Assembly: GCA_964016885.1 (NCBI GenBank)
Contig: OZ024744.1
Location: 30,814,001-30,878,000 of the forward strand
DNA length: 64,000 bases
Source: Eledone cirrhosa
Lineage: Eukaryota
Direction of reading: 5' to 3'
The stretch's first letter is position 1; every line of letters begins with the position of its first letter. The position numbers and the translations under genes were made by a program. This document shows positions 1 through 60,918 of this stretch, one piece after another. The notes beneath the pieces are model-generated. The model did no database searches. It worked only from the letters and a program-made list of their open reading frames with translations, and was not told where the DNA came from.

Positions 1-156
1 TTTGATACCCAGATTCCTGATGAATTCTAAAGAATGAAACAGTTCTAGTCCTGTAGAATCTCATCTATAGTAACATTTTTGATACCCTGATTCCTGATGA
101 TTTCTAAAGAATGAAACAGTTCTAGTCATCTAAAATCTCATCTATATTAACATTTT

Positions 157-228
157 TTGATACCCAGATTCCTGATGAATTCTAAAGAATGAAACAGTTC
201 AAGTCCTGTAGAATCTCATCTATATTAA
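157..228 (+). ncRNA. Worked example of one satellite hammerhead (fully paired stem II variant); predicted cleavage after A210
   Basis: TTGATA 157-162 pairs with TATTAA 223-228 (one G.U); internal loop CCC/CATCTA; AGATTC 166-171 pairs with GAATCT 211-216; CTGATGA 172-178; ATTC 179-182 pairs with GAAT 187-190; GAAA 191-194; CAG 195-197 pairs with CTG 206-208; TA 209-210. Confidence 0.88.
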
Positions 229-3200
229 CATTTTTGATACCCAGATTCCTGATGATTTCTAAAGAATGAAACAGTTCTAGTCCTGTAGAATCTCATGTTT
301 ATTAACAATTTTTGATACCCAGATTCCTGATGATTTCTAAAGAATGAAACAGTTCTAGTCCTGTAGAATCTCATGTATATTAACAATTTTTGATACCCAG
401 ATTCCTGATGATTTCTAAAGAATGAAACAGTTCTAGTCCTGTAGAATCTCATCTATATTAACATTTTTTGATACCCAGATTCCTGATGAATTCTAAAGAA
501 TGAAACAGTTCTAGTCCTGTAGAATCTCATCTATAGTAACATTTTTGATACCCTGATTCCTGATGATTTCTAAATAATGAAACAGTTCTAGTCATCTAGA
601 ATCTCATCTATATTAACATTTTTTGATACCCAGATTCCTGATGAATTCTAAAGAATGAAACAGTTCAAGTCCTGTAGAATCTCATCTATATTAACATTTT
701 TGATACCCTGATTCCTGACGATTTCTAAATAATGAAACAGTTCTAGTCATCTAGAATCTCATCTATATTAACATTTTTTGATACCCAGATTCCTGATGAA
801 TTCTAAAGAATGAAACAGTTCAAGTCCTGTAGAATCTCATCTATATTAACATTTTTGATACCCAGATTCCTGATGATTTCTAAAGAATGAAACAGTTCTA
901 GTCCTGTAGAATCTCATCTATATTAACAATTTTTGATACCCAGATTCCTGATGATTTCTAAAGAATGAAACAGTTCTAGTCCTGTAGAATCTCATCTATA
1001 TATAAATTTTTTGATACCCAGATTCCTGATAATTTCTAAAGAATGAAACAGTTCTAGTCCTGTAGAATCTCATCTATATTAACATTTTTGATACCCAGAT
1101 TCCTGATGATTTCTAAAGAATGAAACAGTTGTAGTCCTGTAGAATCTCATCTATATTAACATTTTTTGATACCCAGATTTCTGATAATTTCTAAAGAATG
1201 AAACAGATCTAGTCCTGTAGAATCTCATCTATATTAAAAATTTTTGATACCCAGATTCCTGATAATTTGTAGAGAATGAAACAGTTCTAGTCCTGTAGAA
1301 ACTCATCTATATTAAAATTTTTTGATACCCAGATTCCTGATGATTTCTAAAGAATGAAACAGATCTAGTCCTGTAGAATCTCATCTATATTAACATTTTT
1401 TGATACCCAGATTCCTGATGATTTCTAAAGAATGAAACAGTTCTAGTCCTGTAGAATCTCATCTATATTAACATTTTTTGATACCCAGATTCCTGATGAA
1501 TTCTAAAGAATGAAACAGTTCTAGTCCTGTAGAATCTCATCTATAGTAACATTTTTGATACCCTGATTCCTGATGATTTCTAAAGAATGAAACAGTTCTA
1601 GTCATCTAGAATCTCATCTATATTAACATTTTTTGATACCCAGATTCCTGATGAATTCTAAAGAATGAAACAGTTCAAGTCCTGTAGAATCTCATCTATA
1701 TTAACATTTTTGATACCCAGATTCCTGATGATTTCTAAAGAATGAAACAGTTCTAGTCCTGTAGAATCTCATGTATATTAACAATTTTTGATACCCAAAT
1801 TCCTGATGATTTCTAAAGAATGAAACAGTTCTAGTCCTGTAGAATCTCATATACATTAAATTTTTTAGATACCCAGATTCCTGATGATTTCTAAAGAATG
1901 AAACAGTTCTAGTCATCTAGAATCTCATCTATATTAACATTTTTTGATACCCAGATTCCTGATGAATTCTAAAGAATGAAACAGTTCTAGTCCTGTAGAA
2001 TCTCATCTATATTAACATTTTTTGATACCCTGATTCCTGATGAATTCTAAAGAATGAAACAGTTCTAGTCCTGTAGAATCTCATCTATATTAACATTTTT
2101 GATACCCTGATTCCTGATGATTTCTAAATAATGAAACAGTTCTAGTCATCTAGAATCTCATCTATATTAACATTTTTTGATACCCAGATTCCTGATGAAT
2201 TCTAAAGAATGAAACAGTTCAAGTCCTGTAGAATCTCATCTATATTAACATTTTTGATACCCAGATTCCTGATGATTTCTAAAGAATGAAACAGTTCTAG
2301 TCCTGTAGAATCTCATGTATATTAACAATTTTTGATACCCAGATTCCTGATGATTTCTAAAGAATGAAACAGTTCTAGTCCTGTAGAATCTCATCCATAT
2401 TAAAATTTTTTGATACCGAGATTCCTGATAATTTGTAAAGAATGAAACAGTTCTAGTCCTGTAGAATCTCATCTATATTAACATTTTTTCACACCCAGAT
2501 TCCTGATGATTTCTAAAGAATGAAACAGTTCTAGTCCTGTAGAATCTCATCCATATTAAAAATTTTTGATACCCAGATTCCTGATAATTTGTAAAGAATG
2601 AAACAGTTCTAGTCCTGTAGAATCTCATCTATATTAAAAATTCTTGATACCCAGATTCCTGATGATTTCTAAAGAATGAAACAGTTCTAGTCCTGTAGAA
2701 TCTCATCTATATTAACATTTTTTGATAACCAGATTCCTGATGATTTCTAAAGAATGAAACAGTCCTAGTCCTGTAGAATCTCATCTACATTAAATTTTTT
2801 AGATACCCAGATTCCTGATGATTTCTAAAGAATGAAACAGTTCTAGTCCTGTAGAATCTCATCTATATTAACATTTTTTGATACCCAGATTCCTGATGAT
2901 TTCTAAAGAATGAAACAGTTCTAGTCCTTTAGAATCTCATCCATATTAAAATTTGTTGATACCCAGATTCCTGATAATTTGTAAAGAATGAAACAGTTCT
3001 AGTCCTGTAGAATCTCATCTATATTAAAAATTTTTGATACCCAGATTCCTGATGATTTCTAAAGAATGAAACTGTTCTAGTCCTGTAGAATCTCATCTAT
3101 ATTAACATTTTTTGATACACAGATTCCTGATGATTTCTAAAGAATGAAACTGTTCTAGTCCTGTAGAATCTCATCTATATTAACATTTTTTGATACCCAG

Positions 3201-6200
3201 ATTCCTGATGATTTCTAAAGAATGAAACAGTTCTAGTCCTGTAGAATCTCATCTATATTAACATTTTTTGATACCCAGATTCCTGATGAATTCTAAAGAA
3301 TGAAACAGTTCAAGTCCTGTAGAATCTCATCTATATTAACATTTTTGATACACTGATTCCTGATGATTTCTAAATAATGAAACAGTTCTAGTCATCTAGA
3401 ATCTCATCTATATTAACATTTTTTGATACCCAGATTCCTGATGAATTCTAAAGAATGAAACAGTTCAAGTCCTGTAGAATCTCATCTATATTAACATTTT
3501 TGATACCCAGATTCCTGATGATTTCTAAAGAATGAAACAGTTCTAGTCCTGTAGAATCTCATGTATATTAACAATTTTTGATACCCAGATTCCTGATGAT
3601 TTCTAAAGAATGAAACAGTTCTAGTCCTGTAGAATCTCATCTATATATAAATTTTTTGATACCCAGATTCCTGATAATTTCTAAAGAATGAAACAGTTCT
3701 AGTCCTGTAGAATCTCATCTATATTAACATTTTTGATACCCAGATTCCTGATGATTTCTAAAGAATGAAACAGTTGTAGTCCTGTAGAATCTCATCTATA
3801 TTAACATTTTTTGATACCCAGATTTCTGATAATTTCTAAAGAATGAAACAGATCTAGTCCTGTAGAATCTCATCTATATTAAAAATTTTTGATACCCAGA
3901 TTCCTGATAATTTGTAGAGAATGAAACAGTTCTAGTCCTGTAGAAACTCATCTATATTAAAATTTTTTGATACCCAGATTCCTGATGATTTCTAAAGAAT
4001 GAAACAGATCTAGTCCTGTAGAATCTCATCTATATTAAAATTTTTTGATACCCAGATTCCTGATGAATTCTAAAGAATGAAACAGTTCAAGTCCTGTAGA
4101 ATCTCATCTATATTAACATTTTTGATACCCAGATTCTTGATGATTTCTAAAGAATGAAACAGTTCTAGTCCTGTAGAATCTCATGTATATTAACAATTTT
4201 TGATACCCAAATTCCTGATGATTTCTAAAGAATGAAACAGTTCTAGTCCTGTAGAATCTCATATACATTAAATTTTTTTGATACCCAGATTCCTGATGAT
4301 TTCTAAAGAATGAAACAGTTCTAGTCATCTAGAATCTCATCTATATTAACATTTTTTGATACCCAGATTCCTGATGAATTCTAAAGAATGAAACAGTTCT
4401 AGTCCTGTAGTATCTCATCTATATTAACATTTTTTGATACCCCGATTCCTGATGAATTCTAAAGAATGAAACAGTTCTAGTCCTGTAGAATCTCATCTAT
4501 ATTAACATTTTTGATACCCTGATTCCTGATGATTTCTAAATAATGAAACAGTTCTAGTCATCTAGAATCTCATCTATATTAACATTTTTTGATACCCAGA
4601 TTCCTGATGAATTCTAAAGAATGAAACAGTTCAAGTCCTGTAGAATCTCATCTATATTAACATTTTTGATACCCAGATTCCTGATGATTTCTAAAGAATG
4701 AAACAGTTCTAGTCCTGTAGAATCTCATGTATATTAACAATTTTTGATACCCAGATTCCTGATGATTTCTAAAGAATGAAACAGTTCTAGTCCTGTAGAA
4801 TCTCATCTATATATAAATTTTTTGATACCCAGATTCCTGATAATTTCTAAAGAATGAAACAGTTCTAGTCCTGTAGAATCTCATCTATATTAACATTTTT
4901 GATACCCAGATTCCTGATGATTTCTAAAGAATGAAACAGTTGTAGTCCTGTAGAATCTCATCTATATTAACATTTTTTGATACCCAGATTTCTGATAATT
5001 TCTAAAGAATGAAACAGATCTAGTCCTGTAGAATCTCATTTATATTAACATTTTTTGATACCCAGATTCCTGATAATTTGTAATGAATGAAACAGTTCTA
5101 GTCCTGTAGAATCTCATCTATATTAAAATTTTTTGATACCCAGATTCCTGATGATTTCTAAAGAATGAAACAGATCTAGTCCTGTAGAATCTCATCTATA
5201 TTAAAATTTTTTGATACCCAGATTCCTGATGATTTCTAAAGAATGAGACAGTTCTAGTCCTGTAGAATCTCATCTATATTAACATTTTTTGATACCCAGA
5301 TTCCTGATGAATTCTAAAGAATGAAACAGTTCAAGTCCTGTAGAATCTCATCTATATTAACATTTTTGATACCCAGATTCCTGATGATTTCTAAAGAATG
5401 AAACAGTTCTAGTCCTGTAGAATCTCATGTATATTAACAATTTTTGATACCCAGATTCCTGATGATTTCTAAACAATGAAACAGTTCTAGTCCTGTAGAA
5501 TCTCATCTACATTAAATTCTTTAGATACCCAGATTCCTGATGATTTCTAAAGAATGAAACAGTTGTAGTCCTTTAGAATCTCATCCATATTAAAATTTTT
5601 TGATACCCAGATTCCTGATGAATTCTAAAGAATGAAACAGTTCTGGTCCTGTAGAATCTCATCTATATTAACATTTTTGATACCCTGATTCCTGATGATT
5701 TCTAAAGAATGAAACAGTTCTAGTCATCTAGAATCTCATCTATATTAACATTTTTTGATACCCAGATTCCTGATGAATTCTAAAGAATGAAACAGTTCAA
5801 GTCCTGTAGAATCTCATCTATATTAACATTTTTGATACCCAGATTCCTGATGATTTCTAAAGAATGAAACAGTTCTAGTCCTGTAGAATCTCATGTATAT
5901 TAACAATTTTTGATACCCAGATTCCTGATAATTTGTAAAGAATGAAACAGTTCTAGTCCTGTAGAATCTCATCTATATTAACATTTTTTCACACCCAGAT
6001 TCCTGATGATTTCTAAAGAATGAAACAGTTCTAGTCCTGTAGAATCTCATCTATATTAACATTTTTTGATACCCAGATTCCTGATGATTTCTAAAGAATG
6101 AAACAGTTCTAGTCCAGTAGAATCTCATCTATATTAAAATTTTTTGATACCCCGATTCCTGATGATTTCTAAAGAATGAAACAGTTCTAGTCCTGTAGAA

Positions 6201-9200
6201 TCTCATCTATATTAAAATTTTTGGACACCGAGATTCCTGATGATTTCTAAAGAATGAAACAGTTCTAGTCCTGTAGAATCTCATCCATATTAAAAATTTT
6301 TGATACCCAGATTCCTGATAATTTGTAAAGAATGAAACAGTTCTAGTCCTGTAGAATCTCATCTATATTAACATTTTTTGATACCCAGATTCCTGATGGT
6401 TTCTAAAGAATGAAACAGTTCTAGTCCTGTAGAATCTCATCTATATTAACATTTTTTGATACCCAGATTCCTGATGAATTCTAAAGAATGAAAGAGTTCT
6501 AGTCCTGTAGAATCTCATCTATATTAACATTTTTGATACCCAGATTCCTGATGATTTCTAAAGAATGAAACAGTTCTAGTCCTCTAGAATCTCATCTATA
6601 TTAAGATTTTTCGATACCCAGATTCCTGATGAATTCTAAAGAATGAAACAGTTCAAGTCCTGTAGAATCTCATCTATATTAACATTTTTGATACCCAGAT
6701 TCCTGATGATTTCTAAACAATGAAACAGTTATAGTCCTGTAGAATCTCATCTACATTAAATTTTTTAGATACCCAGATTCCTGATGATTTCTAAAGAATG
6801 AAACAGTTCTAGTCCTGTAGAATCTCATCTATATTAACATTTTTTGATACCCAGATTCCTGATGATTTCTAAAGAATGAAACAGTTCTAGTCCTTTAGAA
6901 TCTCATCCATATTAAAATTTGTTGATACCCAGATTTCTGATAATTTCTAAAGAATGAAACAGTTCTAGTCATCTAGAATCTCATCTATGTATAAATTTTT
7001 TGATACCCAGATTCCTGATGGTTTCTAAAGAATGAAACAGTTCTAGTCCTGTAGAATCTCATGTATATTAACAATTTTTGATACCCAGATTCCTGATGAT
7101 TTCTAAAGAATGAAACAGTTCTAGTCCTGTAGAATCTCATCTATATTAACATTTTTTGATACCCAGATTCCTGATGGTTTCTAAAGAATGAAACAGTTCT
7201 AGTCCTGTAGAATCTCATCTATATTAACATTTTTTGATACCCAGATTCCTGATGATTTCTAAAGAATGAAACAGATCTAGTCCTGTAGAATCTCATCTAT
7301 ATTAAAATTTTTTGATACCCAGATTCCTGATGATTTCTAAAGAATGAAACAGTTCTAGTCCTGTAGAATCTCATGTATATTAACAATTTTTGATACCCAG
7401 ATTCCTGATGATTTCTAAAGAATGAAACAGTTCTAGTCCTGTAGAATCTCATCTATATATAAATTTTTTGATACCCAGATTCCTGATAATTTCTAAAGAA
7501 TGAAACAGTTCTAGTCCTGTAGAATCTCATCTATATTAACATTTTTGATACCCAGATTCCTGATGATTTCTAAAGAATGAAACAGTTGTAGTCCTGTAGA
7601 ATCTCATCTATATTAACATTTTTTGATACCCAGATTTCTGATAATTTCTAAAGAATGAAACAGATCTAGTCCTGTAGAATCTCATCTATATTAAAAATTT
7701 TTGATACCCAGATTCCTGATAATTTGTAGAGAATGAAACAGTTCTAGTCCTGTAGAAACTCATCTATATTAAAATTTTTTGATACCCAGATTCCTGATGA
7801 TTTCTAAAGAATGAAACAGATCTAGTCCTGTAGAATCTCATCTATATTAACATTTTTTGATACCCAGATTCCTGATGATTTCTAAAGAATGAAACAGTTC
7901 TAGTCCTGTAGAATCTCATCTATATTAACATTTTTTGATACCCAGATTCCTGATGAATTCTAAAGAATGAAACAGTTCTAGTCCTGTAGAATCTCATCTA
8001 TAGTAACATTTTTGATACCCTGATTCCTGATGATTTCTAAAGAATGAAACAGTTCTAGTCATCTAGAATCTCATCTATATTAACATTTTTTGATACCCAG
8101 ATTCCTGATGAATTCTAAAGAATGAAACAGTTCAAGTCCTGTAGAATCTCATCTATATTAACATTTTTGATACCCAGATTCCTGATGATTTCTAAAGAAT
8201 GAAACAGTTCTAGTCCTGTAGAATCTCATGTATATTAACAATTTTTGATACCCAAATTCCTGATGATTTCTAAAGAATGAAACAGTTCTAGTCCTGTAGA
8301 ATCTCATATACATTAAATTTTTTAGATACCCAGATTCCTGATGATTTCTAAAGAATGAAACAGTTCTAGTCATCTAGAATCTCATCTATATTAACATTTT
8401 TTGATACCCAGATTCCTGATGAATTCTAAAGAATGAAACAGTTCTAGTCCTGTAGAATCTCATCTATATTAACATTTTTTGATACCCTGATTCCTGATGA
8501 ATTCTAAAGAATGAAACAGTTCTAGTCCTGTAGAATCTCATCCATATTAAAATTTTTTGATACCCAGATTCCTGATAATTTGTAAAGAATGAAACAGTTC
8601 TAGTCCTGTAGAATCTCATCTATATTAACATTTTTGATACCCTGATTCCTGATGATTTCTAAATAATGAAACAGTTCTAGTCATCTAGAATCTCATCTAT
8701 ATTAACATTTTTTGATACCCAGATTCCTGATGAATTCTAAAGAATGAAACAGTTCAAGTCCTGTAGAATCTCATCTATATTAACATTTTTGATACCCAGA
8801 TTCCTGATGATTTCTAAAGAATGAAACAGTTCTAGTCCTGTAGAATCTCATCCATATTAAAATTTTTTGATACCCAGATTCCTGATAATTTGTAAAGAAT
8901 GAAACAGTTCTAGTCCTGTAGAATCTCATCTATATTAACATTTTTTCACACCCAGATTCCTGATGATTTCTAAAGAATGAAACAGTTCTAGTCCTGTAGA
9001 ATCTCATCCATATTAAAAATTTTTGATACCCAGATTCCTGATAATTTGTAAAGAATGAAACAGTTCTAGTCCTGTAGAATCTCATCTATATTAAAAATTC
9101 TTGATACCCAGATTCCTGATGATTTCTAAAGAATGAAACAGTTCTAGTCCTGTAGAATCTCATCTATATTAACATTTTTTGATAACCAGATTCCTGATGA

Positions 9201-12200
9201 TTTCTAAAGAATGAAACAGTCCTAGTCCTGTAGAATCTCATCTACATTAAATTTTTTAGATACCCAGATTCCTGATGATTTCTAAAGAATGAAACAGTTC
9301 TAGTCCTGTAGAATCTCATCTATATTAACATTTTTTGATACCCAGATTCCTGATGATTTCTAAAGAATGAAACAGTTCTAGTCCTTTAGAATCTCATCCA
9401 TATTAAAATTTGTTGATACCCAGATTCCTGATAATTTGTAAAGAATGAAACAGTTCTAGTCCTGTAGAATCTCATCTATATTAAAAATTTTTGATACCCA
9501 GATTCCTGATGATTTCTAAAGAATGAAACTGTTCTAGTCCTGTAGAATCTCATCTATATTAACATTTTTTGATACACAGATTCCTGATGATTTCTAAAGA
9601 ATGAAACTGTTCTAGTCCTGTAGAATCTCATCTATATTAACATTTTTTGATACCCAGATTCCTGATGATTTCTAAAGAATGAAACAGTTCTAGTCCTGTA
9701 GAATCTCATCTATATTAACATTTTTTGATACCCAGATTCCTGATGAATTCTAAAGAATGAAACAGTTCTAGTCCTGTAGAATCTCATCTATAGTAACATT
9801 TTTGATACCCTGATTCCTGATGATTTCTAAAGAATGAAACAGTTCTAGTCATCTAGAATCTCATCTATATTAACATTTTTTGATACCCAGATTCCTGATG
9901 AATTCTAAAGAATGAAACAGTTCAAGTCCTGTAGAATCTCATCTATATTAACATTTTTGATACCCAGATTCCTGATGATTTCTAAAGAATGAAACAGTTC
10001 TAGTCCTGTAGAATCTCATGTATATTAACAATTTTTGATACCCAGATTCCTGATGATTTCTAAAGAATGAAACAGTTCTAGTCCTGTAGAATCTCATGTA
10101 TATTAACAATTTTTGATACCCAGATTCCTGATGATTTCTAAAGAATGAAACAGTTCTAGTCCTGTAGAATCTCATCTATATTAAAATTTTTTGATACCCA
10201 GATTCCTGATGAATTCTAAAGAATGAAACAGTTCTAGTCCTGTAGAATCTCATCTATAGTAACATTTTTGATACCCTGATTCCTGATGATTTCTAAAGAA
10301 TGAAACAGTTCTAGTCATCTAGAATCTCATCTATATTAACATTTTTTGATACCCAGATTCCTGATGAATTCTAAAGAATGAAACAGTTCTAGTCCTGTAG
10401 AATCTCATCTATATTAACATTTTTGATACCCTGATTCCTGATGATTTCTAAATAATGAAACAGTTCTAGTCATCTAGAATCTCATCTATATTAACATTTT
10501 TTGATACCCAGATTCCTGATGAATTCTAAAGAATGAAACAGTTCAAGTCCTGTAGAATCTCATCTATATTAACATTTTTGATACACTGATTCCTGATGAT
10601 TTCTAAATAATGAAACAGTTCTAGTCATCTAGAATCTCATCTATATTAACATTTTTTGATACCCAGATTCCTGATGAATTCTAAAGAATGAAACAGTTCA
10701 AGTCCTGTAGAATCTCATCTATATTAACATTTTTGATACCCAGATTCCTGATGATTTCTAAAGAATGAAACAGTTCTAGTCCTGTAGAATCTCATGTATA
10801 TTAACAATTTTTGATACCCAGATTCCTGATGATTTCTAAAGAATGAAACAGTTCTAGTCCTGTAGAATCTCATCTATATATAAATTTTTTGATACCCAGA
10901 TTCCTGATAATTTCTAAAGAATGAAACAGTTCTAGTCCTGTAGAATCTCATCTATATTAACATTTTTGATACCCAGATTCCTGATGATTTCTAAAGAATG
11001 AAACAGTTGTAGTCCTGTAGAATCTCATCTATATTAACATTTTTTGATACCCAGATTTCTGATAATTTCTAAAGAATGAAACAGATCTAGTCCTGTAGAA
11101 TCTCATCTATATTAAAAATTTTTGATACCCAGATTCCTGATAATTTGTAGAGAATGAAACAGTTCTAGTCCTGTAGAAACTCATCTATATTAAAATTTTT
11201 TGATACCCAGATTCCTGATGATTTCTAAAGAATGAAACAGATCTAGTCCTGTAGAATCTCATCTATATTAAAATTTTTTGATACCCAGATTCCTGATGAA
11301 TTCTAAAGAATGAAACAGTTCAAGTCCTGTAGAATCTCATCTATATTAACATTTTTGATACCCAGATTCCTGATGATTTCTAAAAATGAAACAGTTCTAG
11401 TCCTGTAGAATCTCATGTATATTAACAATTTTTGATACCCAAATTCCTGATGATTTCTAAAGAATGAAACAGTTCTAGTCCTGTAGAATCTCATATACAT
11501 TAAATTTTTTTGATACCCAGATTCCTGATGATTTCTAAAGAATGAAACAGTTCTAGTCATCTAGAATCTCATCTATATTAACATTTTTTGATACCCAGAT
11601 TCCTGATGAATTCTAAAGAATGAAACAGTTCTAGTCCTGTAGAATCTCATCTATATTAACATTTTTTGATACCCCGATTCCTGATGAATTCTAAAGAATG
11701 AAACAGTTCTAGTCCTGTAGAATCTCATCTATATTAACATTTTTGATACCCTGATTCCTGATGATTTCTAAATAATGAAACAGTTCTAGTCATCTAGAAT
11801 CTCATCTATATTAACATTTTTTGATACCCAGATTCCTGATGAATTCTAAAGAATGAAACAGTTCAAGTCCTGTAGAATCTCATCTATATTAACATTTTTG
11901 ATACCCAGATTCCTGATGATTTCTAAAGAATGAAACAGTTCTAGTCCTGTAGAATCTCATGTATATTAACAATTTTTGATACCCAGATTCCTGATGATTT
12001 CTAAAGAATGAAACAGTTCTAGTCCTGTAGAATCTCATCTATATATAAATTTTTTGATACCCAGATTCCTGATAATTTCTAAAGAATGAAACAGTTCTAG
12101 TCCTGTAGAATCTCATCTATATTAACATTTTTGATACCCAGATTCCTGATGATTTCTAAAGAATGAAACAGTTGTAGTCCTGTAGAATCTCATCTATATT

Positions 12201-35700: not shown

Positions 35701-38700
35701 GTCCTGTAGAATCTCATCTATATTAAAATTTTTTGATACCCCGATTCCTGATGATTTCTAAAGAATGAAACAGTTCTAGTCCTGTAGAATCTCAACTATA
35801 TTAACATTTTTTGACACCCAGATTCCTGATGATTTATAAAGAATGAAACAGTTCTCTTCCTGTAGAATCTCATCTATATTAAAAAATGTTGATACCCAAA
35901 TTCCTGATGATTTCTAAAGAATGAAACACCTCTAGTCCTGTAGAACCTCATAAATATTAACATTTTTTGATACCCAGATTCCTGATGATTTCTAAAGAAT
36001 GAAACAGTTCTAGTCCTGTAGAATCTCATATATATATACATTTTTTGACACCCAGATTCCGGATGATTTCTAAAGAATGAAACAGTTCTAGTACTGTAGA
36101 ATCTCATCTATATTAAAATTTTTTGATACCCAGATTCCTGATGATTTCTAAAGAATGAACCTTTTCTAGTCCTGTAGAATCTCATATATATTAACATTTT
36201 TTGACACCCAGATTCCTGATGATTTCTAAAGAATGAAACAGTCCTAGTCGTGTAGCATCTCATCTATATTAAACATTTTTGATACCCAGATTCCTGATGA
36301 TTTCTAAAGAATGAAACAGTTCTAGTTCTGTAGAATATCATCTATATTAAAATTTTTTGATACCCAGACTCCTGATGATTTCTAAAGAATGAAACAGTTG
36401 TAGTTCAGTAGAATGTCATCTATATTAAAATTTTTTGATACCCAGATTCCTGATGATTTCTAAAGAATGAAACAGATCTAGTCCTGTAGAATCTCATCTA
36501 TATTAACATTTTTTGATACCCAGATTCCTGATGATTTCTAAAGAATGAAACAGTTCTAGACCTGTAGAATCTCATCTATATTAACATTTGTTGATACCCA
36601 GATTCCTGATGATTTCTAAAGAATGAAACAGTTCTAGTCCTGTAGAATCTCATCTATATTAAAATTTTTGGATACCCAGATTCCTGATGATTTCTAAAGA
36701 ATGAAACAGTTCTAGTCCTTTAGAATCACATCCATATTAAAATTTTTTGATACCCAGATTCCTGATGATTTCTAAAGAATGAAACAGTTCTAGTCCTGTA
36801 GAATCTCATCTATATTAAAATTTTTTGATACCCAGATTCCTGATGATTTCTAAAGAATGAAACAGTTCTAGTCCTGTAGAATCTCATCTATATTAAAATT
36901 TTTGGATCCCCAGATTCCTGATGATTTCTAAAGAATGAAACAGTTCTAGTCCTTTAGAATCTCATCCATATTAAACATTTTTGATACCCAGATTCCTGAT
37001 AATTTGTAAAGAATGAAACAGTTCTAGTCCTGTAGAATCTCATCTATATTAAAAATTCTTGATACCCAGATTCCTGATGATTTCTAAAGAATGAAACAGT
37101 TCTAATCCTGTAGAATCTCATCTATATTAACTTTTTTGATACCCAGATTCCTGATGATTTCTAAAGAATGAAACAGTTCTAGTCCTGTAGAATCTCATCT
37201 ATATTAAAAAATGTTGATACCCAGATTCCTGATGATTTCTAAAGAATGAAACACCTCTAGTCCTGTAGAACCTCATCAATATTAACATTTTTTGATACCC
37301 AGATTCCTGATGATTTCTAAAGAATGAAACAGTTCTAGTCCTGTAGAATCTCATATATATTAACATTTTTTCACACCCAGATTCCGGATGATTTCTAAAG
37401 AATGAAACAGTTCTAGTACTGTAGAATCTCATCTATATTAACATTTTTTGATACCCAATTCCTGATGATTTCTAAAGAATGAACCTGTTCTAGTCCTGTA
37501 GAATCTCAGCTATACTAAAATTTTTTGATACCCAGATTCCTGGAGATTTCTAAAGAATGAAACAGTTCTAGTCCTGTAGAATCTAATCTATATTAAAAAT
37601 TTTTGATACCCAGATTCCTGATGATTTCTAAAGAATGAAACAGCTCTAGTCCTGTAGAACCTCATCTATATTAACATTTTTTGACACCCAGATTCCTGAT
37701 GATTTCTAAAGAATGAAACAGTCCTAGTCGTGTAGCATCTCATCTATATTAAACATTTTTGATACCCAGATTCCTTTTGATTTCTAAAGAATGAAACAGT
37801 TCTCGTCCTGTAGAATCTTATCTATATTAACATTTGTTGATACCCAGATTCCTGATGATTTCTAAAGAATGAAACAGTTCTAGTCCTGTAGAATCTCATC
37901 TATATTAACATTTTTTGATACCCAGATTCCTGATGAATTCTGAAGAATGAAACAGTTCTAGTCCTGTAGAATCTCATCTATATTAACATTTTTGGATACC
38001 CAGATTCCTGATGATTTCTAAAGAATGAAACAGTTCTAGTCCTGTAGAATCTCATCTATATTAACATTTTTTGATACCCCGATTCCTGATGATTTCTAAA
38101 GAATGAAACAGTTCTAGTCCTGTAGAATCTCAACTATATTAACATTTTTTGACACCCAGATTCCTGATGATTTCTAAAGAATGAAACAGTTCTCTTCCTG
38201 TAGAATCTCATCTATATTAAAAAATGTTGATACCCAAATTCCTGATGATTCCTAAAGAATGAAACACCTCTAGTCTTGTAGAACCTCATAAATATTAACA
38301 TTTTTTGATACCCAGATTCCTGATGATTTCTAAAGAATGAAACAGTTCTAGTCCTGTAGAATCTCATATATATTAACATTTTTTCACACCCAGATTCCGG
38401 ATGATTTCTAAAGAATGAAACAGTTCTAGTACTGTAGGATCTCATCTATATTAAAATTTTTTGATACCCAAATTCCTGATGATTTCTAAAGAATGAACCT
38501 GTTCTAGTCCTGTAGAATCTCATCTATACTGAAATTTTTTGATACCCAGATTCCTGGAGATTTCTAAAGAATGAAACAGTTCTAGTCCTGTAGAATCTCA
38601 TCTATATTAAAAATTTTTGATACCCAGATTCCTGATGATTTCTAAAGAATCAAACAGCTCTAGTGCTGTAGAACCTCATCTATATTAACATTTTTTGATA

Positions 38701-48100: not shown

Positions 48101-51100
48101 ATATACATTAAATTTTTTAGATACCCAGATTCCTGATGATTTCTAAAGAATGAAACAGTTCTAGTCCTGTAGAATCTCATCTATATTAAGATTTTTTGAC
48201 ACCCAAATTCCTGATGATTTCTAAAGAATGAAACAGTTCTAGTCCTGTAGAATCTCATCTATGATAAAAATTTTTGATACCCAGATTCCTGATGATTTCT
48301 AAAGAATGAAACAGCTCTAGTCCTGTAGAACCTCATCTATATTAACATTTTTTGATATGCAGATTCCTGATGATATCTAAAGTATGAAACAGTTCTAGTC
48401 CTGTAGAATCTCATATATATTAACATTTTTTGACACCCAGATTCCTGATGATTTCTAAAGAATGAAACAGTCCTAGTCGTGTAGCATCTCATCTATATTA
48501 AACATTTTTGATACCCAGATTCCTGATGATTTCTAAAGAATGAAACTGTTCTCGTCCTGTAGAATCTCATCTATATTAAAAAATGTTGATACCCAGATTC
48601 CTGTTGTTTTCTAAAGAATGAAACAGTTCTAGTCCTGTAGAATATCATCTATATTAAAATTTTTTGATACCCAGTTTCCTGATGATTTCTAATGAATGAA
48701 ACAGTTCTAGTCCTGTAGAATCTCATCTATATTAAAATTTTTTGACACCCAGATTCCTGATGATTTCTAAAGAATGAAACAGTTGTAGTTCAGTAGAATC
48801 TGATCTATATTAAAATTTTTTGATACCCAGATTCCTGATGATTTCTAAAGAATGAAACACCTCTAGTACTGTAGAACCTCATCTATATTAACATTTTTTG
48901 ATACCCAGATTCCTGATGATTTCTAAAGAATGAAACAGTTCTAGTCCTGTAGAATCTCATATATATTAACATTTTTTCACAACCAGATTCCTGATGATTT
49001 CTAAAGAATGAAACAGTTCTAGTACTGTAGAATCTCATCTATACTAAAATTTTTTGATACCCAGATTCCTGATGATTTCTAAAGAATGAACAAGTTCTAG
49101 TCCTGTAGAATCTCATATATATTAACACTTTTTGATACCCAGATTCCTGATGATTTCTAAAGAATGAAACAGTTCTAGTCCTGTAGAATCTCATCTATAT
49201 TAACATTTTTTGATACCCAGATTCCTGTTGTTTTCTAAAGAATGAAACAGTTCTAGTCCTGTAGAATATCATGTATATTAAAATTTTTTGATACCCAGTT
49301 TCCTGATGATTTCTAATGAATGAAACAGTTCTAGTCCTGTAGAATCTCATCTATATTAAAATTTTTTGACACCCAGATTCCTGATGATTTCTAAAGAATG
49401 AAACACCTCTAGTACTGTAGAACCTCATCTATATTAACATTTTTTGATACCCAGATTCCTGATGATTTCTAAAGAATGAAACAGTTCTAGTCCTGTAGAA
49501 TCTCATATATATTAACATTTTTTCACAACCAGATTCCTGATGATTTCTAAAGAATGAAACAGTTCTAGTCCTGTAGAATCTCATCTATACTAAAATTTTT
49601 TGATACCCAGATTCCTGGAGATTTCTAAAGAATGAAACAGTTCTAGTCCTGTAGAATCTCATCTATATTAAAAATTTTTGATACCCAGATTCCTGATGAT
49701 TTCTAAAGAATGAAACAGTACTAGTCGTGTAGAATCTCATCTATATTAAACATTTTTGATACCCAGATTCCTGATGAATTCTAAAGAATGAAACAGTTCA
49801 AGTCCTGTAGAATCTCATCTATATTAACATTTTTGATACCCAGATTCCTGATGATTTCTAAAGAATGAGACACCTCTAGTCCTGTAGAACCTCATCTACA
49901 TTAAATTTTTTAGATACCCAGATTTCTGATGATTTCTAAAGAATGAAACAGTTCTAGTCCTGTAGAATCTCATCTATATTAACATTTTTTGATACCCAGA
50001 TTCCTGATGAATTCTAAAGAATGAAACAGTTCAAGTCCTGTACAATCTCATCTATATTAACATTTTTGATACCCAGATTCCTGATGATTTCTAAAGAATG
50101 AAACACCTCTAGTCCTGTAGAACCTCATCAATATTAACATTTTTTGATACCCAGATTCCTGATGATTTCTAAAGAATGAAACAGTTCTAGTCCTGTAGAA
50201 TCTCATATATATTAACATTTTTTGACACCCCGATTCCGGATGATTTCTAAAGAATGAAACAGTTCTAGTCCTGTAGAATCTCATCTATATTAACATTTTT
50301 TGATACCCAGATTCCTGATGATTTCTAAAGAATAAACCTGTTCTAGTCCTGTAGAATCTCATCTATACTAAAATTTTTTGATACCCAGATTCCTGGAGAT
50401 TTCTAAAGAATGAAACAGTTCTAGTCCTGTAGAATCTCATCTATATTAACATTTTTGATACCCAGATTCCTGATGATTTCTAAAGAATGAAACACCTCTA
50501 GTCCTGTAGAACCTCATCTACATTAAATTTTTTAGATACCCAGATTCCTGATGATTTCTAAAGAATGAAACAGTTCTAGTCCTGTAGAATCTCATCTATA
50601 TTAACATTTTTTGATACACAGATTCCTGATGATTTCTAAAGAATGAAACAGTTCAAGTCCTGTACAATCTCATCTATATTAACATTTTTGATACCCAGAT
50701 TCCTGATGATTTCTAAAGAATGAAACAGTTCTAGTCCTTTAGAATCTCATCCATATTAAAATTTTTTGATACCCAGATTCCTGATGATTTCTAAAGAATG
50801 AAACAGTTCTAGTCATCTAGAATCTCAGCTATATTAACATTTTTTGACACCCAGATTCCTGATGATTTCTAAAGAATGAAACACCTCTAGTCCTGTAGAA
50901 CCTCATCTATATTAACATTTTTTGATACCCAGATTCCTGATGATTTCTAAAGAATGAAACAGTTCTAGTCTTGTAGAATCTCATATATATTAACATTTGT
51001 TGACACCCAGATTCCTAATGATTTCTAAAGAATGAAACAGTTCTAGTCCTGTAGAACTCATCTATATTAAAATTTTTTGATACCCAGATTCCTGATGATT

Positions 51101-54100
51101 TCTAAAGAATGAAACAGTTCTAGTCCTGTAGAATCTCATCTATATTAACATTTTTTGATACCCATATTCCTGATGATTTCTAAAGAATGAACCAGTTCTA
51201 GTCCTGTAGAATCTCATCTATATTAACATTTTTTGATACCCAGATTCCTGATGATTTCTAAAGAATGAACCAGTTCTAGTCCTGTAGAATCTCATCTATA
51301 TTAACATTTTTTGATACCCAGATTCCTGATGATTTCTAAAGAATGAAACAGGTCTAGTCCTGTAGAATCTCATCTATATTAAAAAATTTTGATACCCAGA
51401 TTCCTGATGATTTCTAAAGAATGAAACAGTTCTAGTCCTGTAGAATCTCATCTATATTAAAATTTTTTGATACTCAGATTCCTGATGATTTCTAAATAAT
51501 GAAACAGTTCTAGTCCTTTAGAATCTCATCCATATTAACATTTTTTGATACCCAGATTCCTGATGATTTCTAAAGAATGAAACAGTTCTAGTCCTGAAGA
51601 ATCTCATCTATATTAACATTTTTTGATACCCAGATTCCTGATGATTTCTAAAGAATGAAACAGTTCTAGTCCTGTAGAATCTCATCTATATTAAAATTTT
51701 TTGACACCCAGATTCCTGATGATTTCTAAAGAATGAAACAGTTGTAGTTCAGTAGAATCTGATCTATATTAAAATTTTTTGATACCCAGATTCCTGATGA
51801 TTTCTAAAGAATGAAACACCTCTAGTACTGTAGAACCTCATCTATATTAACATTTTTTGATACCCAGATTCCTGATGATTTCTAAAGAATGAAACAGTTC
51901 TAGTCCTGTAGAATCTCATATATATTAACATTTTTTCACAACCAGATTCCTGATGATTTCTAAAGAATGAAACAGTTCTAGTACTGTAGAATCTCATCTA
52001 TACTAAAATTTTTTGATACCCAGATTCCTGATGATTTCTAAAGAATGAACAAGTTCTAGTCCTGTAGAATCTCATATATATTAACACTTTTTGATACCCA
52101 GATTCCTGATGATTTCTAAAGAATGAAACAGTTCTAGTCCTGTAGAATCTCATCTATATTAACATTTTTTGATACCCAGATACCTGATGATTTCTAAAGA
52201 ATGAACCAGTTCTAGTCCTGTAGAATCTCATCTATATTAACATTTTTTGATACCCAGATTACTGTTGATTTCTAAAGAATGAACCAGTTCTAGTCCTGTA
52301 GAATCTCATCTATATTAACATTTTTTGATACCCAGATTCCTGATGATTTCTAAAGAATGAAACAGTTCTAGTCCTGTAGAATCTCATCTATATTAAAAAA
52401 TTTTGATACCCAGATTCCTGATGATTTCTAAAGAATGAAACAGTTCTAGTCCTGTAGAATCTCATCTATATTAAAATTTTTTGATACCCAGATTCCTGAT
52501 GATTTCTAAAGAATGAAACAGTTCTAGTCCTTTAGAATCTCATCCATATTAAAATTTTTTGATACCCAGATTCCTGATGATTTCTAAAGAATGAAACAGT
52601 TCTAGTCATCTAGAATCTCAGCTATATTAACATTTTTTGACACCCAGATTCCTGATGATTTCTAAAGAATGAAACACCTCTAGTCCTGTAGAACCTCATC
52701 TATATTAACATTTTTTGATACCCAGATTCCTGATGATTTCTAAAGAATGAAACAGTTCTAGTCTTGTAGAATCTCATATATATTAACATTTGTTGACACC
52801 CAGATTCCTGATGATTTCTAAAGAATGAAACAGTTCTAGTCCTGTAGAACTCATCTATATTAAAATTTTTTGATACCCAGATTCCTGATGATTTCTAAAG
52901 AATGAAACAGTTCTAGTCCTGTAGAATCTCATCTATATTAACATTTTTTGATACCCATATTCCTGATGATTTCTAAAGAATGAACCAGTTCTAGTCCTGT
53001 AGAATCTCATCTATATTAACATTTTTTGATACCCAGATTCCTGATGATTTCTAAAGAATGAACCAGTTCTAGTCCTGTAGAATCTCATCTATATTAACAT
53101 TTTTTGATACCCAGATTCCTGATGATTTCTAAAGAATGAAACAGGTCTAGTCCTGTAGAATCTCATCTATATTAAAAAATTTTGATACCCAGATTCCTGA
53201 TGATTTCTAAAGAATGAAACAGTTCTAGTCCTGTAGAATCTCATCTATATTAAAATTTTTTGATACTCAGATTCCTGATGATTTCTAAATAATGAAACAG
53301 TTCTAGTCCTTTAGAATCTCATCCATATTAACATTTTTTGATACCCAGATTCCTGATGATTTCTAAAGAATGAAACAGTTCTAGTCCTGAAGAATCTCAT
53401 CTATATTAACATTTTTTGATACCCAGATTCCTGATGATTTCTAAAGAATGAAACAGTTTTAGTCCTGTAGAATCTCATCTATATTAACATTTTTTGATAC
53501 CCAGATTCCTGATGATTTCTAATGAATGAAACAGTCCTAGTCGTGTAGCATCTCATCTATATTAAACATTTTTGATACCCAGATTCCTGATGATTTCTAA
53601 AGAATGAAACTGTTCTCGTCCTGTAGAATCTCATCTATATTAAAAAATGTTGATACCCAGATTCCTGTTGTTTTCTAAAGAATGAAACAGTTCTAGTCCT
53701 GTAGAATATGTATATTAAAATTTTTTGATACCCAGTTTCCTGATGATTTCTAATGAATGAAACAGTTCTAGTCCTGTAGAATCTCATCTATATTAAAATT
53801 TTTTGACACCCAGATTCCTGATGATTTCTAAAGAATGAAACACCTCTAGTACTGTAGAACCTCATCTATATTAACATTTTTTGATACCCAGATTCCTGAT
53901 GATTTCTAAAGAATGAAACAGTTCTAGTCCTGTAGAATCTCATATATATTAACATTTTTTCACAACCAGATTCCTGATGATTTCTAAAGAATGAAACAGT
54001 TGTAGTACTGTAGAATCTCATCTATACTAAAATTTTTTGATACCCAGATTCCTGATGATTTCTAAAGAATGAACCAGTTCTAGTCCTATAGAATCTCATC

Positions 54101-55111
54101 TATATTAACACTTTTTGATACCCAGATTCCTGATGATTTCTAAAGAATGAAACAGTTCTAGTCCTGTAGAATCTCATCTATATTAACATTTTTTGATACC
54201 CAGATTCCTGATGATTTCTAAAGAATGAACCAGTTCTAGTCCTAGAGAATCTCATCTATATTAACATTTTTTGATACCCAGATTCCTGTTGATTTCTAAA
54301 GTATGAACCAGTTCTAGTCCTGTAGAATCTCATCTATATTAACATTTTTTGATACCCAGATTCCTGATGATTTCTAAAGAATGAAACAGTTCTAGTCCTG
54401 TAGAATCTCATCTATATTAAAAAATTTTGATACCCAGATTCCTGATGATTTCTAAAGAATGAAACAGTTCTAGTCCTGTAGAATCTCATCTATATTAAAA
54501 AATTTTGATACCCAGATTCCTGATGATTTCTAAAGAATGAAACAGTTCTAGTCCTGTAGAATCTCATCTATATTAAAATTTTTTGATACCCAGATTCCTG
54601 ATGATTTCTAAAGAATGAAACAGTTCTAGTCCTTTAGAATCTCATCCATATTAAAATTTTTTGATACCCAGATTCCTGATGATTTCTAAAGAATGAAACA
54701 GTTCTAGTCATCTAGAATCTCAGCTATATTAACATTTTTTGACACCCAGATTCCTGATGATTTCTAAAGAATCAAACAGTTCTAGTCCTGTAGAATCTCA
54801 TCTATATAAAAAATTTTGATACCCAGATTCCTGATGATTTCTAAAGAATGAAACACCTCTAGTCCTGTAGAACCTCATCTATATTAACATTTTTTGATAC
54901 CCAGATTCATGATGATTTCTAAAGAATGAAACAGTTCTAGTCTTGTAGAATCTCATATATATTAACATTTGTTGACACCCAGATTCCTGATGAATTCTAA
55001 AGAATGAAACAGTTCTAGTCCTGTAGAACTCATCTATATTAACATTTTTTGATACCCAGATTCCTGATGATTTCTAAAGAATGAAACAGTTCTAGTCTTG
55101 TAGAATCTCAT

Positions 55112-55525
55112 CATCATCATCATCATCATCAACGTTTAACGTCCGTGTTCCACGCTTGCATGGGTTTGGACGGGGGTAGTCCCACTTGAGGCAAGAGTGA
55201 TTGTCTTGCTCGCATAGGACTGTCTGGCAGGTTTTCTACAGTTGGATGCCCTTCCTAACACCAACCACATTTACAGTGTGGGTCTGGGAGGTTTTTACCG
55301 TGTTGCCTACACGGCCACATTACAGCGTGGACTGTGTGTTTTTTTGTCGTGACACCTACACGATCTCATTTGTTTCGGCCTGGATGGCGCGGCACCAACA
55401 TAACTTTACATAGAACGGGGTGGTGTGGATGGGGTGGGGGTGGCGGCGGGAGGGGTGTATTTTGTTAGAGATGCCTACTGGCAAGGCGGGTCTTCTCTGT
55501 TACTGAGTACCGCCAAAGGTCACTC
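55112..55525 (-). mobile_element. 5'-truncated RTE-type non-LTR retroposon (last codons of ORF, 3' UTR, (GAT)n tail) inserted in the satellite, copy 1
   Basis: Minus strand reads SDLWRYSVTEKTRLASRHL*, resembling the C-terminal DxWR region of RTE ORFs, followed by a UTR ending GGACGTTAAACGTT(GAT)n. Flanked by TCTCAT at 55106-55111 and 55526-55531. The empty target GTCTTGTAGAATCTCATATATATT is present elsewhere, e.g. near 56140. Confidence 0.82.
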
Positions 55526-57245
55526 TCTCATATATATTAACATTTGTTGACACCCAGATTCCTGATGATTTCTAAAGAATGAAACACTTCTAGTCCTGTA
55601 GAACTCATCTATATTAAAATTTTTTGATACCCAGATTCCTGATGATTTCTAAAGAATGAACCAGTTCTAGTCCTGTAGAATCTCGTCTATATTAACATTT
55701 TTTGATACCCAGATTCCTGATGATTTCTAAAGAATGAACCAGTTCTAGTCCTGTAGAATCTCATCTATATTAACATTTTTTGATACCCAGATTCCTGATG
55801 ATTTCTAAAGAATGAAACAGTTCTAGTCCTGTAGAATCTCATCTATATTAACATTTTTTGATACCCATATTCCTGATGATTTCTAAAGAATGAACCAGTT
55901 CTAGTCCTGTAGAATCTCATCTATATTAACATTTTTTGATACCCAGATTCCTGATGATTTCTAAAGAATGAACCAGTTCTAGTCCTGTAGAATCTCATCT
56001 ATATTAACATTTTTTGATACCCAGATTCCTGATGATTTCTAAAGAATGAACCAGTTCTAGTCCTGTAGAATCTCATCTATATTAACATTTTTTGATACCC
56101 AGATTCCTGATGATTTCTAAAGAATGAAACAGTTCTAGTCTTGTAGAATCTCATATATATTAACATTTGTTGACACCCAGATTCCTGATGATTTCTAAAG
56201 AATGAAACAGTTCTAGTCCTGTAGAACTCATCTATATTAAAATTTTTTGATACCCAGATTCCTGATGATTTCTAAAGAATGAACCAGTTCTAGTCCTGTA
56301 GAATCTCATCTATATTAACACTTTTTGATACCCAGATTCCTGATGATTTCTAAAGAATGAAACAGTTCTAGTCCTGTAGAATCTCATCTATATTAACATT
56401 TTTTGATACCCATATTCCTGATGATTTCTAAAGAATGAACCAGTTCTAGTCCTGTAGAATCTCATCTATATTAACATTTTTTGATACCCAGATTCCTGAT
56501 GATTTCTAAAGAATGAACCAGTTCTAGTCCTGTAGAATCTCATCTATATTAACATTTTTTGATACCCAGATTCCTGATGATTTCTAAAGAATGAAACAGG
56601 TCTAGTCCTGTAGAATCTCATCTATATTAAAACATTTTGATACCCAGATTCCTGATGATTTCTAAAGAATGAAACAGTTCTAGTCCTGTAGAATCTCATC
56701 TATATTAAAATTTTTTGATACTCAGATTCCTGATGATTTCTAAATAATGAAACAGTTCTAGTCCTTTAGAATCTCATCCATATTAAAATTTTTTGATACC
56801 CAGATTCCTGATGATTTCTACAGAATGAAACAGTTCTAGTCATCTAGAATCTCAGCTATATTAACATTTTTTGATACCCAGATTCCTGATGATTTCTAAA
56901 TAATGAAACAGTTCTAGTCCTTTAGAATCTCATCCATATTAAAATTTTTTGATACCCAGATTCCTGATGATTTCTACAGAATGAAACAGTTCTAGTCATC
57001 TAGAATCTCAGCTATATTAACATTTTTTGACACCCAGATTCCTGATGATTTCTAAAGAATCAAACAGTTCTAGTCCTGTAGAATCTCATCTATATTAAAA
57101 AATTTTGATACCCAGATTCCTGATGATTTCTAAAGAATGAAACACCTCTAGTCCTGTAGAACCTCATCTATATTAACATTTTTTGATACCCAGATTTCTG
57201 ATGATTTCTAAAGAATGAAACAGTTCTAGTCTTGTAGAATCTCAT

Positions 57246-57659
57246 CATCATCATCATCATCATCAACGTTTAACGTCCGTGTTCCACGCTTGCATGGGTT
57301 TGGACGGGGGTAGTCCCACTTGAGGCAAGAGTGATTGTCTTGCTCGCATAGGACTGTCTGGCAGGTTTTCTACAGTTGGATGCCCTTCCTAACACCAACC
57401 ACATTTACAGTGTGGGTCTGGGAGGTTTTTACCGTGTTGCCTACACGGCCACATTACAGCGTGGACTGTGTGTTTTTTTGTCGTGACACCTACACGATCT
57501 CATTTGTTTCGGCCTGGATGGCGCGGCACCAACATAACTTTACATAGAACGGGGTGGTGTGGATGGGGTGGGGGTGGCGGCGGGAGGGGTGTATTTTGTT
57601 AGAGATGCCTACTGGCAAGGCGGGTCTTCTCTGTTACTGAGTACCGCCAAAGGTCACTC
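57246..57659 (-). mobile_element. Second, apparently identical copy of the RTE-type insertion
   Basis: Same sequence, tail length, truncation point and TCTCAT flanks (57240-57245, 57660-57665) as copy 1, at offset 2134. Confidence 0.82.
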
Positions 57660-59731
57660 TCTCATATATATTAACATTTGTTGACACCCAGATTCCTGAT
57701 GATTTCTAAAGAATGAAACACTTCTAGTCCTGTAGAACTCATCTATATTAAAATTTTTTGATACCCAGATTCCTGATGATTTCTAAAGAATGAACCAGTT
57801 CTAGTCCTGTAGAATCTCATCTATATTAACACTTTTTGATACCCAGATTCCTGATGATTTCTAAAGAATGAAACAGTTCTAGTCCTGTAGAATCTCATCT
57901 ATATTAACATTTTTTGATACCCATATTCCTGATGATTTCTAAAGAATGAACCAGTTCTAGTCCTGTAGAATCTCATCTATATTAACATTTTTTGATACCC
58001 AGATTCCTGATGATTTCTAAAGAATGAACCAGTTCTAGTCCTGTAGAATCTCATCTATATTAACATTTTTTGATACCCAGATTCCTGATGATTTCTAAAG
58101 AATGAAACAGGTCTAGTCCTGTAGAATCTCATCTATATTAAAACATTTTGATACTCAGATTCCTGATGATTTCTAAATAATGAAACAGTTCTAGTCCTTT
58201 AGAATCTCATCCATATTAACATTTTTTGATACCCAGATTCCTGATGATTTCTAAAGAATGAAACAGTTCTAGTCCTGAAGAATCTCATCTATATTAACAT
58301 TTTTTGATACCCAGATTCCTGATGATTTCTAAAGAATGAAACAGTTCTAGTCCTGTAGAATCTCATCTATATTAACATTTTTTGATACCCAGATTCCTGA
58401 TGATTTCTAATGAATGAAACAGTTCTAGTCCTGTAGAATCTCATCTATATTAACATTTTTTGATACCCAGATTCCTGATGATTTCTAAAGAATGAAACAG
58501 TTCTAGTCCTCTAGAATCTCATCTATATTAACATTTTCTGACACCCAGATTCCTGATGATTTCTAAAGAATGAAACAGTTCTAGTACTGTAGAACTCATC
58601 TATATTAAAATTTTCTAATACCCAGATTCCTAATGATTTCTAAAGAATGTAACAGTTCTAGTCCTGTAGAATCTCATCTATATTAACATTTTTTGATACC
58701 CATATTCCTGATGATTTCTAAAGAATGAAACAGTTCTAGTCCTGTAGAATCTAATCCATATTAAAATTTTTGGATACCCAGATTCCTGATGATTTCTAAA
58801 GAATGAAACAGTTCTAGTCCTGTAGAATCTAATCCATATTAAAATTTTTGGATACCCAGATTCCTGATGATTTCTAAAGAATGAAACAGTTCTAGTCCTC
58901 TAGAATCTCATCTATATTAACATTTTTTGACACCCATATTCCTGATGATTTCTAAAGAATGAAACAGTTCTAGTACTGTAGAACTCATCTATATTAAAAT
59001 TTTCTGATACCCAGATTCCTGATGATTTCTAAAGAATGAACCAGTTCTAGTCCTGTAGAATCTCATCTATATTAACACTTTTTGATACCCAGATTCCTGA
59101 TGATTTCTAAAGAATGAAACAGTTCTAGTCCTGTAGAATCTAATCCATATTAAAATTTTTGGATACCCAGATTCCTGATGATTTCTAAAGAATGAAACAG
59201 TTCTAGTCCTGTAGAATCTAATCCATATTAAAATTTTTGGATACCCAGATTCCTGATGATTTCTAAAGAATGAAACAGTTCTAGTCCTCTAGAATCTCAT
59301 CTATATTAACATTTTTTGATACGCAGATTCCTGATGATTTCTAAAGAATGAAACAGTTCTAGTCCTGTAGAATCTCATCCATATTAAAATTTTTTGATAC
59401 CCTGATTCCTGATGATTTCTAAAGAATGAAACAGTTCTAGTCCTGTAGAATCTCATCTATATTAAAATGTTTTGATACCCAGATTCCTGATGATTTCTAA
59501 AGAATGAAACAGTTCTAGTCCTGTAGAATCTCATCTATATTAACATTTTTTGACACCCAGATTCCTGATGATTTCTAAAGAATGAAACAGTCCTAGTCCT
59601 GTAGAATATCATATATATTAAAATTTTTTGATACCCAGTTTCCTGATGATTTCTAATGAATGAAACAGTTCTAGTCCTGTAGAATCTCATCTATATTAAA
59701 ATTTTTTGATACCCAGATTCCTGATGATTCC

Positions 59732-60887: not shown

Positions 60888-60890
<3 letters not shown>

Positions 60891-60918
<28 letters not shown>

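Follow-up and report, generated by a model that had tools for sequence, protein, structure and literature searches.

Hammerhead ribozymes are known from several satellite DNAs—newt satellite 2, pDo500 of Dolichopoda (PMC2837043), and SMalpha and the W-elements of Schistosoma (PMC8490949)—in which, as these reports describe them, every unit carries a hammerhead and a double-hammerhead fold is possible. They have also been described in the pseudo-long terminal repeats (pLTRs) of Penelope-like elements (PLEs) (Cervera and de la Peña, 2014; PMC4209133) and in animal non-LTR retrozymes (Cervera and de la Peña, 2020; PMC7229834; Li, Clavereau and Pollet, 2026; 10.64898/2026.07.22.740005), reported as low-GC tandem families that derive from PLE pLTRs and contain a type I hammerhead in every unit. 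The retrozymes of Cervera and de la Peña are reported to be expressed as circles (PMC7229834), and local amplification from a pLTR has been proposed by Li et al. as the way in which retrozymes originate (10.64898/2026.07.22.740005). Hammerhead satellites and Penelope-derived retrozymes are thus already known. Here, we describe a hammerhead array in a 64,000-nt stretch of Eledone cirrhosa (assembly GCA_964016885.1; contig OZ024744.1, hereafter C28, positions 30,814,001–30,878,000 of the forward strand; referred to as the window). The array is likely to be a single-locus satellite that arose from one 5′-truncated fold-back PLE insertion and grew at the DNA level, with the ribozyme as a decaying passenger. 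What is new is its scale of ~4,840 units, the large fraction of each unit taken up by the ribozyme, a founder insertion that can still be read, and a conserved U·U variant of the hammerhead.

An anchor search of window positions 1–59,729 found 757 units on the + strand and none on the − strand, bearing out the original prediction of about 755 copies on one strand. The units are spaced by 78 bp (n = 652), 77 bp (n = 101), 75 bp (n = 1), or 498 bp (n = 2), and Tandem Repeats Finder gave a result consistent with this 77/78-bp array. The window contains 256 distinct monomer sequences, with a mean identity of 96% to the commonest one. The window starts inside the array, which ends at 59,729, and the satellite of more than 60 kb first described is the right-hand part of a longer one: the first monomer lies at ~30,496,740, giving a + strand array of ~377 kb (C28 ~30,496,740–30,873,729). 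Upstream, 1-kb samples at 30.56–30.76 Mb were all array and the 30.48 Mb sample was not; fifteen 10-kb stretches held 1,835 monomers as unbroken + strand array without N; and unrelated tandem repeats occupy several upstream samples. Published retrozyme arrays extend to 62 units in a coral and to 300 in a beetle (35 genomes), so that the present array is more than 10 times longer than any such array in the cited literature. The units of the newt, Dolichopoda, and Schistosoma satellites are given as hundreds of base pairs, as compared with 78 bp here, 65% of which is ribozyme; the earlier generalization that all known units are of this larger order does not hold, since Li et al. list retrozyme families of 51–972 bp with at most 300 units (10.64898/2026.07.22.740005).

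Of each monomer, 51 nt have the layout of a type I hammerhead and the remaining 27 nt are an AT-rich spacer. It was therefore correct to say that the monomer contains the ribozyme, but not that the ribozyme is essentially the whole unit. In the commonest monomer the hammerhead occupies window positions 399..449 of the + strand, with stem I AGAUUC/GAAUCU (399–404/444–449), the CUGAUGA core (405–411), U10.1 (412) and U11.1 (423), stem II UUC/GAA (413–415/420–422), GAA (424–426) of the GAAA core, stem III ACAG/CUGU with a CUAG-centred loop (427–430/439–442), and the GUA cleavage triplet with A17 at 443 and a predicted cut at 443/444. All the elements of a type I hammerhead—CUGANGA, GAAA, NUH, and three stems, open at stem I—are present. 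As in the PLE pLTR hammerheads of the literature, helix III is palindrome-centred; here it has 4 bp and an 8-nt loop. A further difference lies at the base of stem II, where a G-C pair at 10.1/11.1 is usual according to Cervera and de la Peña (PMC4209133), whereas U·U is found in most array copies and most aligned parent copies. A literature search for a measured effect of U·U at 10.1/11.1 found none. Of the two forms of stem II first proposed, TTC/GAA stands, whereas ATTC/GAAT requires an A-U pair that occurs in 98 of 754 window monomers, concentrated near the window-side end of the array; an example is the EcoRI-type monomer at 166..216 (+), a derived local variant with A10.1 paired to U11.1.

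Might the likeness to a hammerhead be due to chance, or the array to an error of assembly? An Rfam scan of the window, a check that the original prediction had recommended for the monomers, gave no match at gathering score; in bases 1–1200 the Hammerhead_3 and HH9 models reached 15–17.5 bits (thresholds 48.5 and 52; E 1.4–5.6), and the U·U at 10.1/11.1, positions that normally hold G-C (PMC4209133), points the same way. In contrast, a type I descriptor matched the + strand only and was matched, on either strand, by 7 of 50,000 dinucleotide shuffles. The original prediction was right that a monomer with a genuine hammerhead was amplified into a large satellite. Furthermore, across subfamilies of the parent element (see below) reaching down to ~70% protein identity, stem I changes pairwise (AGAUUC/GAAUCU, AGCUUC/GAAGCU, GGCUUC/GAAGCC), loop II varies freely, position 7 is the sole recurring core change, and both the CUAG centre of loop III and U·U at 10.1/11.1 are kept. 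The upstream regions of 20 more divergent ORF (open reading frame) copies contained a hammerhead in 14 cases and none in 6. In an alignment of 10 of these regions with 13 of 29 loci on contig C1 and two window monomers, 94.9% of cells in the 21 distinct rows were paired and 21 cells, all in stem I, showed double-sided changes; the rows were picked for distinct, complete stems, and so the pair counts lean upward. None of 500 shuffles reached this level of covariation, and all slid controls were also lower. As to assembly, the 256 distinct monomers argue against an artefact, and the head-to-tail joint of monomers is present in the contigs of 3/3 public runs, which derive from one sample and are possibly the source of the assembly. 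Chance or artefact is accordingly highly improbable; judged from its sequence, the type I hammerhead in the monomer is genuine, given its rarity in shuffles and the stem I covariation in the parent family.

By sequence comparison, the 78-bp unit is a part cut from the pLTR of a PLE that resides in this genome, a source that the original prediction did not contain. A genome-wide search with the core pattern gave 25,120 matches, as compared with 10 for a reversed control; the array should account for ~2,700 of these, a figure near the excess of 2,548 matches on the forward strand, which implies ~22,000 dispersed copies. At the dispersed loci, the monomer sequence is embedded in a longer element end with flanks specific to the element, often as head-to-head inverted pairs ending in (TA)n. 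The (TA)n at which the copies stop follows the final bases of the monomer directly (the short end) or after a further ~65 bp (the tail); among 73 element ends scored, 26 had the tail, 22 had the short end, 21 extended into the ORF, and 4 belonged to other kinds. An ORF search within ±1.5 kb of dispersed copies returned microsatellite frames only, the full element being seen in longer stretches. A complete element on contig C2 (L123) comprises a pLTR-hammerhead, a 713-aa ORF, a microsatellite-rich 3′ untranslated region, a second pLTR-hammerhead, the tail, and (TA)n; one monomer in the register of its pLTRs, beginning with the T-run that precedes the ribozyme and finishing at the short 3′ end, lies at window positions 36743..36820 (+).

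The 713-aa ORF contains DKT (116), YRDD (347), CNCLNKEAC, a CxCx5C motif (566), and a C-terminal YIG (602), and its neighbours in a protein atlas, at 0.96–0.99, come from animals and in some cases carry GIY-YIG or RVT_1. Described traits of the Hydra clade of PLEs include a single ORF, DKT instead of DKG, a CxCx5C linker, a C-terminal GIY-YIG, (TA)n targeting, pLTR hammerheads, and inverted 5′-truncated copies tailed at one end (Craig et al.; 10.1101/2021.04.23.441226; PMC4209133), and pLTR hammerheads, inverted truncated copies, a tail, and (TA)n targets were all found here. The parent thus appears to be a Hydra-type PLE. Its unit of ~5.2 kb exceeds the size of less than 3 kb given as general for Hydra elements (10.1101/2021.04.23.441226), owing to the microsatellite-swollen 3′ untranslated region. 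Many copies are 97–100% identical with long open frames, indicative of a young family. In several copies (L055, L056, L061, L073, L078), many 5′ truncations and inversion centres lie at the 5′ strand of hammerhead stem I, and loose ends in the run contigs, at window positions 401–406, match the same strand; this suggests that reverse transcription is held back by the ribozyme, or by a start site at this point.

The left edge of the array reads, in order, (TA)n, an inverted element end with the tail, a fold-back centre, and the first direct monomer, which is the ordinary insertion structure of the parent family. The inverted arm carries the loop-II allele of the array, but cannot be derived from the array, because the array has no tail. 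At the fold-back centre, TATATTAAAA stands right before the T-run that starts the unit, and 78 bp further on the unit closes with this word again. Such a founder insertion, readable at the edge, distinguishes the array from retrozymes as reported. An unrelated fold-back element with ~200-bp arms (L082, ~C28:30,496,150–30,496,540) lies immediately to the left of this arm and shares its (TA)n-rich tract; an 18-bp satellite follows further left.

The monomer–monomer junction was found 1,584 times in the genome in forward and 0 times in reverse orientation, as compared with ~1,650 matches expected from the array alone; among the first 100 matches listed, in contig order, 2 were on C1 and 98 on C28. 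Those on C1 belong to an orphan run (L129; C1:350,200,252–350,200,843) of 7.6 monomers, six of seven distinct, which is ~96% like stretches of the array, has neither (TA)n nor tail, and is followed at its 3′ end by a short direct repeat. On its sequence, this orphan is better explained by capture of array DNA than by copying from a rolling circle. A forward-only junction at the count expected from the array, together with a captured-like orphan, argues for one locus amplified in place.

These data bear directly on a different account, in which an active ultra-short non-LTR retrozyme seeded or feeds the array: self-cleaved 78-nt units would circularise, and the PLE reverse transcriptase would make tandem cDNA from them by rolling circle. 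Tandem type I hammerhead repeats tied to PLE pLTRs have been described (PMC7229834; 10.64898/2026.07.22.740005), an intact and young autonomous partner resides in the genome, the junction word is on both founder arms, and the orphan run exists. By the definition of Li et al., at least two complete type I units in tandem, here taken apart from their minimum free energy (MFE) filter, the window has 126 adjacent intact pairs. However, retrozymes are reported as dimers or multimers at many loci, whereas the junction is limited here to one array and one orphan with no reverse match; the orphan, with distinct monomers and neither tail nor (TA)n, is unlike the product of one circle; the founder arm has the tail, which a 78-nt circle would lack; and the stems of the array show 1 compensatory change against 558 breaking ones. 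This account is therefore quite unlikely, and the array appears from its sequence to work as a transposable-element-derived satellite carrying a Penelope hammerhead rather than as a mobile retrozyme.

Growth of the single-locus satellite at the DNA level is indicated by its heterogeneous monomers, block duplications, and co-duplicated inserts. Identical runs of at least six monomers recur at lags of 112, 62, 174, 38, and 50 (430 matches, as compared with 0 in 20 shuffles). A 421-bp (CAT)n-headed short interspersed element-like insert, recognized by spacing and sequence comparison and likewise missing from the original prediction, is present at 55110..55530 and, in identical form, at 57244..57664, having been duplicated with flanking monomers. 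Both observations imply block duplication of DNA and not a fixed short higher-order repeat; no regular short period was found over lags 1–60 (mean distances 5.0–5.7). The higher-order structure first proposed is thus confirmed as local block duplications but not as a regular period.

Whether the ribozyme is maintained in the array was judged from its variants. Among 688 unique monomers, stem changes comprised 558 that break pairing, 85 that keep it as wobble, and the single compensatory one. With the T-run junction sites excluded, the non-reference rate was 3.0% for the core as compared with 4.1% at free sites (p = 0.24), and allele numbers were equal; the anchor used to detect monomers overlaps the core. 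A change that hammerhead biochemistry would lead one to regard as inactivating, G8A, occurs in 58 of 757 monomers. The core is kept in 578 of 754 window monomers, and the core with all three stems in 326. Array copies therefore appear to be in decay and not to be maintained for a function, unlike the ribozyme of pDo500, which is reported to be constrained (PMC2837043), and the ribozyme in the array is most likely a passenger.

Folding was predicted for monomers, dimers, and natural 5-mers. The commonest monomer prefers an alternative fold (−8.2 kcal/mol) to the hammerhead (−4.8 kcal/mol), whereas in the A10.1-type monomer the hammerhead is the predicted MFE structure (−6.2 kcal/mol); in 60 natural 5-mers the mean predicted probability of own-unit stems was 0.04–0.05. 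For a dimer, the predicted energies are −9.6 kcal/mol for two single hammerheads, −16.2 for a full double hammerhead, −20.3 with one swapped hammerhead forced, and −21.7 for the MFE structure. Because the swapped fold lies within 1.4 kcal/mol of the MFE, a dimeric mode is plausible on these models, namely a double hammerhead between neighbouring units. For Penelope hammerheads, dimeric cleavage has been proposed and low in vitro activity described (PMC4209133; reviewed in PMC6765202), and 8/9 Xenopus retrozyme dimers are reported as uncleaved in vitro (10.64898/2026.07.22.740005). The original prediction of cleavage into 78-nt multiples for every + strand transcript is thus overstated, given the number of intact monomers, the predicted misfolding of the commonest one, and the weak cleavage, as dimers, reported for relatives (PMC4209133).

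The same results bear on the idea that the satellite has been co-opted, being transcribed and processed by double hammerheads, or supplying RNA whose helix III, with CUAG at its centre, pairs with transcripts of the parent element (~22,000 copies) and cuts or silences them in trans. The low predicted cost of the swapped dimer, the 126 adjacent intact pairs, the local amplification of the well-folding A10.1 variant, and the constraint reported for a satellite hammerhead in cave crickets (PMC2837043) are in line with it. Yet no signal of selection was detected on core or stems in the array, single-hammerhead stem probabilities are low, the Xenopus dimers were mostly uncleaved, and the TATA-like word 5′ of the parent's ribozyme, a putative promoter, is not in the monomer; co-option is thus unlikely. 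A bolder form has only a slight chance of being right: a transcribed ribozyme polymer whose thousands of half-compatible hammerheads yield 78-nt multiples or tiny circles and cut parent transcripts in trans via the palindromic helix III. If true, the satellite, possibly on a sex chromosome, would defend the genome by catalysis or through small RNAs against the young retrotransposon from which it arose.

Several points weigh against decay of a passenger ribozyme in a single-locus satellite founded by one Hydra-type insertion. The essential confinement of the junction to the array and the one orphan on C1 is seen among listed matches that, in contig order, extend as far as C28, and the orphan itself means that some dispersal has occurred. 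Because the junction word is also on the inverted arm, the founder template may already have held a junction. Of the ~317 kb of array upstream of the window, ~145 kb of sequence was examined. The parent was assigned to the Hydra type by motifs and insertion traits; a Pfam search of its ORF gave GIY-YIG at E 0.008, below the cut-off, and no reverse transcriptase match. The covariation signal comes from two stem I pairs in related sequences, stems II and III being nearly invariant. With regard to decay, including the T-run junction sites makes the spacer more variable than the core (8.1% vs. 2.9%); the youth of the array, at 96% identity, leaves the selection test low in power; the fold-improving A10.1 variant has spread near the window-side end; and the numbers of monomers with a kept core and of intact neighbouring pairs suggest that much of the array could still be active.

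Taken together, a mechanism can be proposed. By analogy with known family behaviour, the type I hammerhead of the PLE pLTR probably serves to trim the RNA of the element and likely acts as a dimer. One 5′-truncated insertion into (TA)n would have left the inverted arm with its tail and a direct arm ending at the short 3′ end, as read at the left edge; TATATTAAAA at the fold-back centre, 78 bp from the same word at the end of the direct arm, would have been the seed. Slippage and unequal exchange of DNA may then have enlarged the seed to ~4,840 units, amplifying 78 bp of pLTR without the ORF, unlike known PLE pLTR hammerheads. The ribozyme would be a passenger in the array, now decaying. If the array is transcribed, folding predicts partial, slow cleavage, mostly through double hammerheads of neighbours, and hence a ladder rather than clean monomers.

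The locus provides a base-level case of the proposed route from a Penelope pLTR to a hammerhead tandem repeat, in which parent, founder insertion, and seed junction are all readable. It also makes clear that neither mobility nor function has to follow from the presence of a hammerhead in each unit. The monomers amount to a collection of natural mutants of a single ribozyme, whose U·U at the base of stem II is unusual and is kept by the parent family; this collection is suited to direct tests of dimer cleavage and of the role of Penelope hammerheads. A literature search for such an array (cephalopod, Penelope, retrozyme, satellite) found none; subscription journals were outside its scope, and supplements may hold closer short-unit cases.

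At its right end, the array adjoins an unrelated 422-bp tandem (59732..60893; 2.8 copies, 99% identical, followed by (TA)n), which truncates the last monomer within the ribozyme, so that the original right end is lost. Shorter forms of the (CAT)n-headed inserts occur upstream in the opposite orientation (L090:1490–1725, 3540–3790, and 5745–5980). Inside another parent copy, on C2 near 310.63 Mb, a (TA)n tract contains a 562-bp tandem of ~3.7 copies (L122:1550–3610) whose units have CTGATGA and a downstream hairpin ending in GTC, without GAAA; these features perhaps mark a degenerate hammerhead that belongs to a different family. This parent copy also has, nested within it, a second, divergent Penelope-like ORF (L122:4621–6510) with a 630-aa frame, a CxCx5C-type linker, and YRDD; Pfam gave no match for this frame. 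Finally, C28, at 136.5 Mb, is placed last among the chromosome-scale contigs, behind C26 (23.8 Mb) and C27 (22.4 Mb); a sex chromosome is often listed last in assemblies.

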